This document shows, piece after piece, positions 59,380 to 63,402 of a DNA stretch of 64,000 nt; position 1 is the first letter of the stretch; each line of letters begins with the position of its first letter. The notes beneath the pieces are model-generated. The model did no database searches and had not been told where the DNA came from. It saw nothing but the letters and a program-made list of their open reading frames with translations. This stretch comes from Pseudomonadota bacterium. GTDB lineage: Bacteria; Pseudomonadota; Gammaproteobacteria; JAKAQQ01. The position numbers and the translations under genes are program-made. The stretch is taken from the NCBI GenBank assembly GCA_027320085.1, contig DAHVLZ010000010.1, positions 32,001 to 96,000 of the forward strand, in the 5' to 3' direction.

Positions 59380-59466
59380 GCCGGGGTGGCGGAACTGGTA
59401 GACGCGCCGGACTCAAAATCCGGTTGGGGAAACCCAGTGAGGGTTCGATTCCCTCCCCCGGCACCA
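59380..59466 (+). tRNA. tRNA-Leu(CAA), intron-less
   Basis: Cloverleaf with long variable arm; CCGGA-CTCAAAA-TCCGG anticodon arm; GTTCGA; CCA end. Confidence 0.97.
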
Positions 59467-59743
59467 AGAGGCTTTCTCACTCACTCCCGCTCTGTCTAAT
59501 ACCATATAAGAATCATAGCGTTATGTTTATACAAGATGGAATAGAATCCTTCCAGACCTTGCGGGAGCATTCCAGTTGGAGGCATCCTCTGATGCGCGTG
59601 ATTCAAAATCTAAAATATAGAAATCAAAAGCAATAGTAAATCCTTCCTCTACAAATAGTTATTTACAGAATCTCGATTTGTGATATCCATACACAACTCT
59701 TTCACAGTTTCACACTTTTGAGAGAGTTTGGGAGGATATTCCC

Positions 59744-60969
59744 GTGGCCGAACACCACACCATTCTCGGCGGCAAAGTCCACGTGTACATGCGGCCCAAC
59801 AGCAGCCACTGGCAGTGCTCCACCTACCTCGCGGGCAAGAACCGGCGTCTCAGCACGAAAGACGACAGCCTCGCGAGGGCCAAGGAGATTGCCGAGGACT
59901 GGTATCTGCAACTGCGCGGCAAGCTCCGGAGCGGCGAAATCAAATCCGAAAAGACCTTCGGCGAAGCGGCGGAGCAGTTCCTCCGCGAATATGAAATCAT
60001 CTGCGCATGAGCGCGCACCTCGTCCCCTTCTTCGGGAAGATGGGCCTCTCCGAGATCACCTCCGGAACGGTGCAGGAATACAGAATCCACCGGCTGCAGC
60101 AGGCGATGAAGAAGTTCAACAAGCCGCCCGCCCGCAGCACCATTCACCAGGAAATCGTTTGCTTGCGGCAGGCCCTCAAAACAGCTATCCGCCACGGATG
60201 GCTGGACCGCCTGCCGGACCTCTCGGAACCCTATAGGGCTTCCGGCAAAATCTCGCACCGGACATGGTTTTCGCCGGAGGAATACAAGAAGCTCTACGAG
60301 GCCACGCGCGAGCGCGCGCACCATCCGCTCAATCCCCGCTATCAGTGGGAATCAGAACAGATGCATGATTATGTTCTGTTCATGGCGAATACGGGTCTGG
60401 GCCCCGACGAGGCCCGGCGTCTCCAGTTCCGCGATGTCACCATCGCAAAGGATGACGGCCTCAAGAAAGAAATCCTGGAAATCGAGGTTCGGGGCAAGCG
60501 CGGCGTCGGCTATTGCAAGAGTATGCCGGGCGCCGTGGTTCCCTTCGAGCGCCTCAAGGCGCGCAATGTTGAAAAGCGCAAGCAGGAAGCGGAGAAGGCG
60601 GCACGGAAAGCCGGGGCCGCTCCGCAGGCGAACGGCCAGACGGGAGCGAGCAAGGAACCTGATCCCACCGACCTGCTTTTTCCGAAGTCCCATCGGGAGC
60701 TGTTCAATGCCATTCTGGATGAACAGGCACTCAAGACCGACCGGGAGGGCCAGCCGCGCACGGCCTACAGCCTGCGCCACACCTACATCTGCCTGCGACT
60801 GATGGAAGGGGCCGACATCTACCAGATCGCCAAGAACTGCCGCACCAGTGTCGAGATGATCGAAAAATACTACGCCTCCCACATCAAGAACAGCCTCGAC
60901 GCAGCGGCGATCAACGTGATGAAACCGAAACGGCCCAAAGAGAAGCAAAATAAAAACGACGAGAAATAA
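59744..60969 (+). pseudogene. Tyrosine recombinase/integrase, split and catalytically damaged
   Basis: Arm-binding ORF 59744-60010 and catalytic ORF 60007-60969 in different frames; TGLGPDE (expected TGLR), YSLRHTY, IEKYY. Confidence 0.88.
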
Positions 60970-61029: not shown

Positions 61030-61350
61030 GCCGGCGTGGCGGAATGGCAGACGCGGCGGACTCAAGCCAGAATTGAGTGCTCGCCGGGAAACCGGCGATG
61101 CAGAACTGCTCAAAGTCGGGGAAGCCTGAAATGGTAATCCCGAGCCAAGCCTGAACGGACAGTTCAGGAAGGTGTAGAGACTAGACGGGCAGCACCTAAC
61201 CTCCGAATTCTCCGGAGCACGGTGAAGGGATAGTCCAGACCACAAACTTCCGTGAAGGCTCCTGCCTGACGGAAGGCGGCGAAAGCCGTAGAGGCAAGAA
61301 AATCCGCTGGGCGCAAGCCCGTGTGGGTTCGACTCCCTCCGCCGGCACCA
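61030..61350 (+). tRNA. tRNA-Leu(CAA) interrupted in the anticodon (exons 61030-61063 and 61299-61350)
   Basis: Joined exons give an 86-nt Leu-type cloverleaf with GCGGA-CTC^AAAA-TCCGC and a CCA end. Confidence 0.92.
61064..61298 (+). ncRNA. Group I intron (IC3-like), 235 nt, no ORF
   Basis: P1 ACTCAA/TTGAGT; core GAAGGTGTAGAGACTAGACGG...CACCTAA...GGTGAAGGGATAGTCC; GAAA tetraloops; terminal G. Confidence 0.93.
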
Positions 61351-62348: not shown

Positions 62349-62537
62349 GTCGATTCTCCCGTTCCTGATTCTCCAGCCTTTGCGAACGATCGCGGTAGCG
62401 GGCTGCAATCAACCCGAGCACATTTTACCATGAATTGCCACTTCTGATATGGGCAAGCAGCATGCACGAGCTGCAAACACGTTGGCAACTATTGCAATTG
62501 GGAATTGTTCATCGTATGCTGGCTATGTAATCGTTCC

Positions 62538-62918
62538 ATGGACAAGAATTTCTACCTCCGTTTCGGCCAGATGCTCCGGGAAGCGCGCAAGGCTTCCGGG
62601 TTGTCGCAAGAGGACCTGGGCAAGTCTGTCGGCCTCAACAGAACATCGGTCAGTAATATCGAAAAGGGCCGTCAGAAAATTCTGCTCCACACGTTCTGTG
62701 AGTTATTGAGGGTATTGAACGTAGGGCCACGCGACCTGATTCCCTTGCCGGTTGAGAAAAAGCCGCCCGCCAATCCTGATCTGAGCGGATACCGGCCGGC
62801 TGTGCGTGCCTTCATCGCAAGGGGCATCGGCCTGCAATCGAGAGAGGAGTCGAAGAGTAAATCCAATGTCAATTCGCCGCTTCAAGATTCAGAAGCTCGT
62901 AAGCGAGTTGCTCGATGA
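62538..62918 (+). CDS. XRE-family HTH regulator
   Basis: LSQEDLGKSVGLNRTSVSNIEKGRQ. Confidence 0.92.
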   Translation: MDKNFYLRFGQMLREARKASGLSQEDLGKSVGLNRTSVSNIEKGRQKILLHTFCELLRVLNVGPRDLIPLPVEKKPPANPDLSGYRPAVRAFIARGIGLQSREESKSKSNVNSPLQDSEARKRVAR

Positions 62919-63402
62919 GTTCGAAATAGCGGAACCACCCGTCCCGGTGCGGAAGCTTGCACGCGGCCGCGGCGCCCGGATATTCCTGGAAGGCCAGGAA
63001 GGCGATCTGTCTGGGTTCCTGTTCAGGCGCGAAAAAGAGATCATCATTGGCGTCAATACGAATCAGGCCCCCATTCGCCAGCGGTTCACCATAGCGCATG
63101 AATTGGGGCACTTGCTGCTTCATGATTTGGATGATCTGCATGTGGACCACGGGTTCGTGGTACGGTTGCGCAGCGATGTATCGAGTCTCGGCCTTGACGA
63201 GGCAGAAATGGAGGCCAACCGGTTCGCGGCGGAACTCTTGATGCCGACGCGGCTCCTGAAGGAAGATCTGGAAGGTACGGAGCTGGACTTGACGAATGAC
63301 CAGACGTTTCGGTCTCTGGCCAAGCGTTACGGCGTCAGCGCGCAGGCTTTGGCCATTCGGCTTACTGGCTTGGGATATCTGCCAACCGTAGAGACTGCCT
63401 GA
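62866..63402 (+). CDS. ImmA/IrrE-family metallo-endopeptidase
   Basis: RQRFTIAHELGH (HExxH), EMEANRFAAELLMP. Confidence 0.94.
   Translation: MSIRRFKIQKLVSELLDEFEIAEPPVPVRKLARGRGARIFLEGQEGDLSGFLFRREKEIIIGVNTNQAPIRQRFTIAHELGHLLLHDLDDLHVDHGFVVRLRSDVSSLGLDEAEMEANRFAAELLMPTRLLKEDLEGTELDLTNDQTFRSLAKRYGVSAQALAIRLTGLGYLPTVETA

Follow-up and report, generated by a model that had tools for sequence, protein, structure and literature searches.

A tRNA-Leu(CAA) gene interrupted after C34 (61063) by a 235-nt group I intron was identified on the forward strand at positions 61030-61350 of the window, i.e., the whole 64,000-nt stretch of DNA analysed here. Sequence comparison indicates that this is a complete tRNA-Leu(CAA) gene with an island-borne intron of the Leu.3Cg type (subgroup IC3), which is probably derived from a tRNA-Leu(UAA) intron and probably still self-splices at a C-G pair. 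Within a defence island of approximately 21 kb, which is inserted in the host tRNA-Leu(CAA) gene, the split gene comes first after the integrase. The C-G intron type itself has already been described in a 2020 preprint; added here are the island setting, the split-and-replace arrangement with matched anticodons, the two origins indicated for the C type and the pattern of conservation. An earlier note on this DNA had seen neither the Leu.3Cg precedent nor the genomic island with its integrase. The features of the region are listed in Table 1.

Table 1. Features of the split tRNA-Leu(CAA) gene, its intron and the neighbouring island genes (window coordinates).
Feature	Position	Strand	Basis or remarks
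Host tRNA-Leu(CAA), uninterrupted	59380..59466	+	Integration target, attL, regenerated; ARAGORN, Rfam tRNA 62.3 bits
Direct repeat, copy 1	59409..59480	+	72-nt repeat; anticodon stem-loop to tRNA 3' end plus 13 nt
Tyrosine integrase, N-terminal piece	59744..60010	+	88-aa ORF in another frame; tblastn with full-length relatives
Tyrosine integrase, C-terminal 320 aa	60007..60969	+	Weak Pfam SAM-like integrase domain matches
5' exon of tRNA-Leu(CAA)	61030..61063	+	Ends ...GGACTC at C34; ARAGORN -i, exon alignment with the genome's other tRNA-Leu genes
P1 hairpin	61060..61078	+	ACTCAA (61060-61065), loop GCCAGAA, TTGAGT (61073-61078); Rfam alignment
Group I intron, IC3-like, 235 nt	61064..61298	+	RF00028 32.4 bits; helices hand-placed
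P2	61081-61087/61092-61098	+	Hand-placed, pair counts
P3	61106-61111/61187-61192	+	Hand-placed, pair counts
P4	61116-61120/61139-61143	+	Hand-placed, pair counts
P5	61124-61126/61133-61135	+	Hand-placed, pair counts
P6	61150-61156/61162-61168	+	Hand-placed, pair counts
P7	61179-61183/61231-61235	+	Hand-placed, pair counts
P8	61193-61196/61221-61224	+	Hand-placed, pair counts
P9	61248-61253/61269-61274	+	Hand-placed, pair counts
3' exon	61299..61350	+	AAAA, 3' anticodon-stem strand, long variable arm, T arm, acceptor strand, encoded CCA
XRE-type HTH cargo gene	62505-62918	+	Pfam
M78/IrrE-like peptidase cargo gene	62806-63402	+	Pfam

The 5' splice sites of group I introns normally lie after a U in a U-G wobble pair, which is among their most conserved features and is recognized directly by the ribozyme core. 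In the window gene, C61063 pairs with G61075 instead, and P1 is composed of six Watson-Crick pairs with no wobble. The Rfam model RF00028 aligns C61063 to its conserved splice-site U, with G61075 as the partner. The intron starts with AAGCC and ends with GCAAG, its terminal G being 61298, and is followed by a 3' exon that begins with AAAATCCGC and ends with the encoded CCA. Joining of the exons restores the 7-nt anticodon loop CUCAAAA on a 5-bp anticodon stem. Only a cut after C34 yields both the terminal intron G and the 7-nt loop, and alternative registers of P1, checked by eye, lead to mismatches. With introns allowed, ARAGORN reported tRNA-Leu(caa) i(35,235) with bounds at exactly 61030-61350. 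The split gene was missed by ARAGORN under default settings, under which the neighbouring uninterrupted tRNA-Leu(CAA) was the sole call in the region. The split pattern (CTC / a...g / AAAA) fits the definition of Leu.3Cg, i.e., a split after the third loop nucleotide with C at position -1 and a terminal G. A splice site after C34, proposed in the earlier note, is borne out by the terminal G, the 7-nt loop and the ARAGORN bounds, and the pairing of this C with G in P1, also proposed there, agrees with both the sequence and the RF00028 alignment.

The C at 61063 is not an assembly error, since two further samples from that study yielded contigs that cover this position with 0 differences; the same C-G pair is present in nineteen other distinct genes. 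Apparent joints between 61063 and 61299 in four DNA runs were traced to intron-less tRNA-Leu(CAA) genes of other organisms and do not represent spliced RNA. The mature tRNA is predicted to be a class II cloverleaf with fully paired acceptor, D, anticodon and variable-arm stems. Its T stem contains one U-U mismatch (U50-U64), which is shared with loci L179, L200 and L220 (four of the eight island-borne C-type genes). A promoter scan gave no sigma-70-like call ahead of the split gene, a result of little informative value.

Editing of the splice-site C to U, or its bypass by another 5' site (e.g., after U33), is hardly credible. Such an event would satisfy the general rule of a U in a U-G wobble at 5' splice sites, but a cut after U33 cannot restore the 7-nt loop together with a terminal intron G, and the P1 partner of U33 is A, not G. 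The orphan host halves found beside C-type genes (described below) carry CAA, so that the island would need a CAA product, and bacterial C-to-U editing of nucleotide 34 is not known to us. Among the outcomes considered in the earlier note, the comparative evidence favours splicing at the non-canonical pair, whereas nothing supports a C-to-U change.

The intron was matched by RF00028 (Intron_gpI) at 61054-61254 with 32.4 bits (E 1.5e-6 for the 501-nt stretch searched). The match thus falls short of the gathering score, which is 50, and a scan at that threshold does not show the intron; the same model has been used at cut-offs of 18-20 bits for bacterial tRNA introns (Williams 2020, 10.1101/2020.01.27.920355). 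A search of the rest of the window genome with RF00028 gave no further match. Elsewhere in the genome, ARAGORN made intron-bearing calls on contigs C2, C7 and C21. Two of these, tRNA-Ser and tRNA-Pro on contigs C7 (34812-35152) and C21 (3147-3532), were rejected as false, having neither tRNA-like exons nor group I motifs.

Pairing was counted in an alignment of the eight island-borne C-type genes, covering the intron helices P1-P9 and the tRNA stems. Standard pairs occupy 95.5% of the cells, a share inflated by the drawing of the structure from one of the eight sequences. Changes on both sides, a count that is not inflated in this way, were found in 19 of 82 pairs (0 of 500 shuffles; 1-6 pairs in slid controls). 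P1 is paired in 100% of the cells, and the splice-site pair is C-G in all eight genes. The helices P3, P4, P7 and P8 are invariant and fully paired, the P3/P7 pseudoknot included, while covariation is seen in P2, P6, P8a and P9 and in the acceptor, anticodon and variable-arm stems of the tRNA. Given the 66 distinct homologous intron-bearing tRNA-Leu genes that were aligned with the window gene, the predicted group I intron is a feature far beyond chance.

The host tRNA-Leu(CAA) gene used as the integration target lies upstream of the integrase, and its 3' part belongs to a direct repeat. A second copy of this repeat, with 95.8% identity over 72 nt, lies 21 kb downstream of the first at positions 112528-112599 of contig C45 (80528-80599 on the window scale, outside the window), and a weaker third copy is found 1.8 kb beyond the second (window-scale 82354-82413). 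The C-terminal integrase open reading frame, which ends sixty bases upstream of the split tRNA-Leu gene, is 61-77% identical to open frames of 413-422 aa in genomes G072 and G333 and to the metagenome relatives. When full-length relatives (open reading frames of 394-485 aa) were aligned by tblastn, their first approximately 90 residues matched frame 3 and the rest matched frame 2. The integrase gene of this metagenome-assembled genome therefore has an apparent frameshift near 60000 and looks broken.

In addition to the two cargo genes in the window, Pfam identified a Fic protein, a Schlafen/AlbA ATPase, a type III restriction subunit with an N6/N4 methylase, SMODS with an S_4TM effector, and AbiEi/AbiEii beyond the window. 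The stretch between the repeats is a defence island. In two genomes of the same genus (G001 and G002), synteny with the window genome extends to the 3' end of the host tRNA-Leu(CAA) gene and not beyond it, and the genes downstream of this tRNA in G002 map to a different contig of the window genome. An integrase beside the target tRNA, a distant direct repeat and the end of synteny with close relatives at the tRNA, which together characterize an island, were all found. Beyond the island, positions 114700-116200 of contig C45 (window-scale 82700-84200) contain diverged internal repeats that are 70-83% identical, with a period of approximately 100-500 nt. Similar repeat sequence occurs at the ends of contigs C45 and C21 and probably explains the assembly break.

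The earlier note had asked whether the genome has another tRNA-Leu(UAA). An uninterrupted tRNA-Leu(UAA) gene was found by ARAGORN and exon alignment, together with the uninterrupted tRNA-Leu(CAA) gene, so the split copy in the window is intact but redundant.

Relatives of the integrase are encoded in at least 514 of 600 matched metagenome stretches, and the best 80 of these integrase-bearing stretches (L164-L243) were compared. In 51 of these 80 loci the integrase is followed by an intron-bearing tRNA-Leu gene, with U at position -1 in 40 and C in 11 (eight pairs of loci are identical). In 10 others an uninterrupted tRNA-Leu(CAA) gene, identical in all ten, takes its place. An orphan tRNA-Leu 5' half lies approximately 135 nt upstream of the integrase start (approximately 445 nt before its aligned part). 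This half extends through the anticodon loop and then gives way to AT-rich DNA; no 3' half follows it, and ARAGORN calls no tRNA there. On its upstream side, the orphan half is flanked by housekeeping genes, which vary from locus to locus. The DNA that follows the whole tRNA encodes BREX genes, methylases, MmeI, ArdC, topoisomerase, IS21, Fic, AbiEi and ThiF/JAB.

The 3' acceptor strand of the island tRNA matches the 5' exon of the same gene rather than the orphan half (L167, L179, L200, L219 and L220). The whole tRNA is therefore self-consistent, which argues that it travels with the island. In genome G333 (contig C4, approximately 17.3-56.7 kb), an orphan 5' half, the integrase, a whole tRNA-Leu(CAA) gene, 37.6 kb of other DNA and an orphan 3' half follow one another, and this 3' half fits the orphan 5' half located 39 kb away. 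The layout in G333 and the self-consistent tRNAs together indicate that these islands split and replace their target rather than rebuild it. Locus L206 also rebuilds the target, as does the island of the window genome.

A model in which a mini-element consists of the integrase, the 5' exon and the intron only, the 3' exon being supplied by the host, was rejected for the island loci. The acceptor strand of the 3' exon complements the 5' exon of the island and not the orphan half, the replacement tRNA is identical in 10 loci with differing orphan halves, and the matching orphan 3' half in G333 is 37.6 kb away. This model may apply to the compact form found in Alcaligenaceae. The idea that the replacement gene owes protection from the integrase to its intron is weakened by intron-less replacement genes with an anticodon stem-loop nearly identical to that of the target (G333). 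In L170 (4250-4840), a second copy of the last approximately 33 nt of tRNA-Leu (T arm and acceptor strand) is present approximately 560 nt after the gene, which points to an earlier integration of a further small element at the 3' end of the island tRNA gene.

A BLAST search of 400 genomes from the class of the window genome gave five full-length relatives of the split gene. Three of them are tRNA-Leu(UAA) genes with a U34-G wobble (G343, 77% identity; G060, 76%; G406, 75%), one is a tRNA-Leu(CAA) gene with C34-G (G017, 69%), and the fifth is a tRNA-Leu(UAA) gene (G130, 67%). The G of the guide sequence is identical in all five. The aligned relatives place the insertion at the site used by tRNA-Leu(UAA) introns, as the earlier note had stated. 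A pattern scan of one genome per species gave at least three C-type genes among the 120 stretches listed, of which only three were real intron genes; these belong to Bordetella tumbae, an Achromobacter sp. and a Steroidobacteraceae MAG (unpublished genome). The scan was too unspecific to yield frequencies. A full-length intron gene was found in 18 of 61 relatives of B. tumbae, and ARAGORN typed 10 as CAA and 7 as UAA. The intron type of Bordetella, Achromobacter and Steroidobacteraceae is also carried by G017, a member of the window genome's class.

Six other intron-bearing tRNA genes were observed in the same class: L022 (G069), L016 (G017), L012 (G031), L028 (G349), L040 (G181) and L034 (G399). 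In three of them the 3' exon starts with CATAA, which corresponds to a CAU anticodon and apparently places the intron between U33 and C34. Of the others, two resemble tRNA-Arg(UCU) and one resembles tRNA-Ser(UGA); several of the six were mislabelled by ARAGORN.

A tree of 67 distinct genes, built after masking of positions -1 to +3, groups the 20 C-type rows into two clades nested among 47 U-type rows. One clade contains 8 island-borne genes and the other 12 Burkholderiales-type genes (SH-aLRT 93 and 99), and a minimum of two U/C changes is needed. This tree came from a quick search and has several long branches, so its topology is indicative; an earlier tree of 49 rows agrees with it. The C type thus appears, on this indicative topology, to have arisen twice.

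The wobble base of the orphan half is the same as the -1 base of the island gene in 43 of the 43 informative loci among the 80 (32 U/U, 11 C/C, 0 discordant), a match that represents few independent events because the C-type island loci belong to a single clade. The agreement extends to genomes near B. tumbae, in which an orphan half begins 235-236 nt ahead of the intron-bearing gene and reads CAA in five C-type genomes and UAA in one U-type locus. Some orphan halves (L179, L219) differ little from the adjacent 5' exon, and the match of anticodons could therefore also have come from gene conversion. The orphan tRNA-Leu(CAA) 5' halves in Bordetella tumbae, Achromobacter and three related genomes (L063 4368-4405, minus strand; likewise L115, L280-L284 and L290) are identical to the 5' exon and end after the anticodon loop, with housekeeping flanks and no integrase nearby. 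They look like decayed or miniature counterparts of the island insertions.

The following series of steps probably accounts for the C type. The ancestor would be an island-borne tRNA-Leu(UAA) intron gene. The integrase would cut the host tRNA-Leu gene at the anticodon loop, and the island would usually leave the cut gene unrebuilt and bring a whole replacement tRNA-Leu with the same anticodon. Since the codons read by the broken gene would have to be read by its replacement, a branch that targets tRNA-Leu(CAA) would have needed C34. The change of U34 to C34 would then have created the C-G pair with the same guide G, and this pair would have been accepted at the splice site as the cost of C34.

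Whether such an intron can still splice was approached through the constraints on its sequence. Mean pairwise identity within the island clade is 0.84 both among the C types (8) and among the U types (33). Of the 122 intron columns without variation in the U types, only 5 vary among the C types, as against 31 of 58 columns that are variable in the U types, and the corresponding counts for exon columns are 2 of 50 and 24 of 29. Fisher p-values for these comparisons are inflated by relatedness, but the pattern itself is clear. The window copy has no change in the core columns; where it departs from U-invariant columns, it does so by a compensated pair in the acceptor stem and a single G-U pair in P5, and relatives have both. 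The C types have thus diversified under the constraints of the U types and with compensated pairs, which argues that the C-G intron still splices. Self-splicing at C-G would probably be slower than in the U-G relatives and would yield a working tRNA-Leu(CAA).

The competing explanation that splicing was lost after the change of U34 to C34, leaving at least the window copy as a silent relic of the island, is unlikely. The window copy is redundant beside the uninterrupted tRNA-Leu(CAA) and tRNA-Leu(UAA) genes, the integrase is apparently frameshifted, the T stem contains the U-U mismatch, and the same C-G splice-site mutation inactivates the Tetrahymena intron, as stated by Williams (10.1101/2020.01.27.920355). 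A relic of this kind is, however, difficult to reconcile with C types that are as diverse as the U types and yet conserve the same core columns, with the 19 compensated pairs within the C clade and with the unchanged core of the window copy. The T-stem mismatch occurs in half of the eight C-type genes and is hence old and tolerated. In addition, no uninterrupted tRNA-Leu(CAA) gene was found in four other carriers (G017, Bordetella tumbae, Achromobacter sp. and the Steroidobacteraceae MAG) by BLAST with a tRNA-Leu(CAA) query, a search that did find other leucine isoacceptors but amounts to less than a full tRNA census. Where UUG is read by tRNA-Leu(UAA), cells may do without a tRNA-Leu(CAA). 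Selection on the C types could therefore be weaker than on the U types. Continued splicing at the C-G pair is the reading preferred here.

No changes in the core that would compensate for the lost wobble were found when the C and U types of the island clade were compared; the near-fixed differences between them are restricted to position -1 and intron position +3. A G at intron position +2, paired with a U of the guide sequence, is carried by 17 of the 20 C-type rows and by 2 of the 47 U-type rows, an association that represents two independent contrasts only (sign test, p 0.5). This G-U pair is possibly a helper of C-G splicing. It could also be taken to favour slow or conditional splicing as a form of regulation, in which the C-G pair would throttle the output of island tRNA-Leu(CAA). 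Data on the Azoarcus ribozyme (PMC2241849) likewise lead to the expectation that C-G weakens the first step. A regulatory role is nevertheless quite improbable, given that the +2 association comes down to those two contrasts and that the window copy has A at +2. Splicing at the C-G pair as a tolerated cost of C34 remains the favoured explanation.

In a wider and more tentative reading, to which we give somewhat less than an even chance, tRNA-Leu intron genes would be standard in a large family of split-and-replace islands. The wobble base would have followed a switch of target from UAA to CAA, with splicing persisting, so that the C-G exception evolved twice. If this is true, the C-G introns represent a natural, twice-evolved exception to the U-G rule, and the islands also carry group I introns of tRNA-Leu from one bacterium to another. 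In Alcaligenaceae, the chromosomal Leu.3Cg genes, with their orphan 5' half 235 nt upstream, would then be the decayed remains of such insertions. A natural C-G lineage that is apparently under selection in two origins provides material for testing how strict the U-G rule is. The island setting may matter more than the C-G pair itself. Replacement islands with matched anticodons suggest a sideways route for tRNA-Leu introns, which bears on the debate about the age and mobility of these introns, and their design differs from the usual model in which the target is regenerated. Neither the spread of tRNA-Leu introns by islands nor the split-and-replace design was found in print in the literature searched.

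Among known systems, the closest is the Leu.3Cg type, of which 72 introns, all in Proteobacteria, have been reported (Williams, bioRxiv 2020, 10.1101/2020.01.27.920355). According to this preprint, their splicing "needs testing". In the literature searched, the term Leu.3Cg occurs only in the preprint itself, and nothing relevant was found on follow-up work, on islands combined with introns or on natural C-G exceptions. The window gene shares with this type the tRNA-Leu host, the insertion after nucleotide 34, the C at -1, the terminal G and the Watson-Crick C-G pair in P1. The text of the preprint gives counts and no genomic context, whereas the window gene is island-borne and lies beside an integrase, and its lineage is separate from the chromosomal Leu.3Cg type of Alcaligenaceae.

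The tRNA-Leu(UAA) introns (Leu.3Ug), which are classical in cyanobacteria and plastids, have the same insertion site, the 3' exon AAAA, the guide G and an alignable IC3 core, but carry U34, a U-G wobble and the anticodon UAA. The Leu.3Ug relatives found in this analysis come from the window genome's own class and from islands, not from cyanobacteria. The IC3 intron of Azoarcus tRNA-Ile(CAU) is also a small, GC-rich bacterial tRNA intron, and its core presumably resembles that of the window intron. It differs in its tRNA, in its insertion point and in having a natural U-G wobble at the splice site. When the splice-site U of the Azoarcus IC3 ribozyme was changed to C (CAU to CAC), the reaction was inhibited but not blocked, and CAC was the best tolerated of four mutants (PMC2241849).

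The islands resemble those of the Islander model (PMC4383910) in the tyrosine integrase, the tRNA target, the crossover in the anticodon loop, the displaced tRNA fragments at the ends and the defence cargo. In that model the split gene is rebuilt from fragments, whereas in most of the loci studied here the 5' half is orphaned and a replacement tRNA is supplied. The island of the window genome does both, as its target has been rebuilt and it also carries a replacement tRNA.
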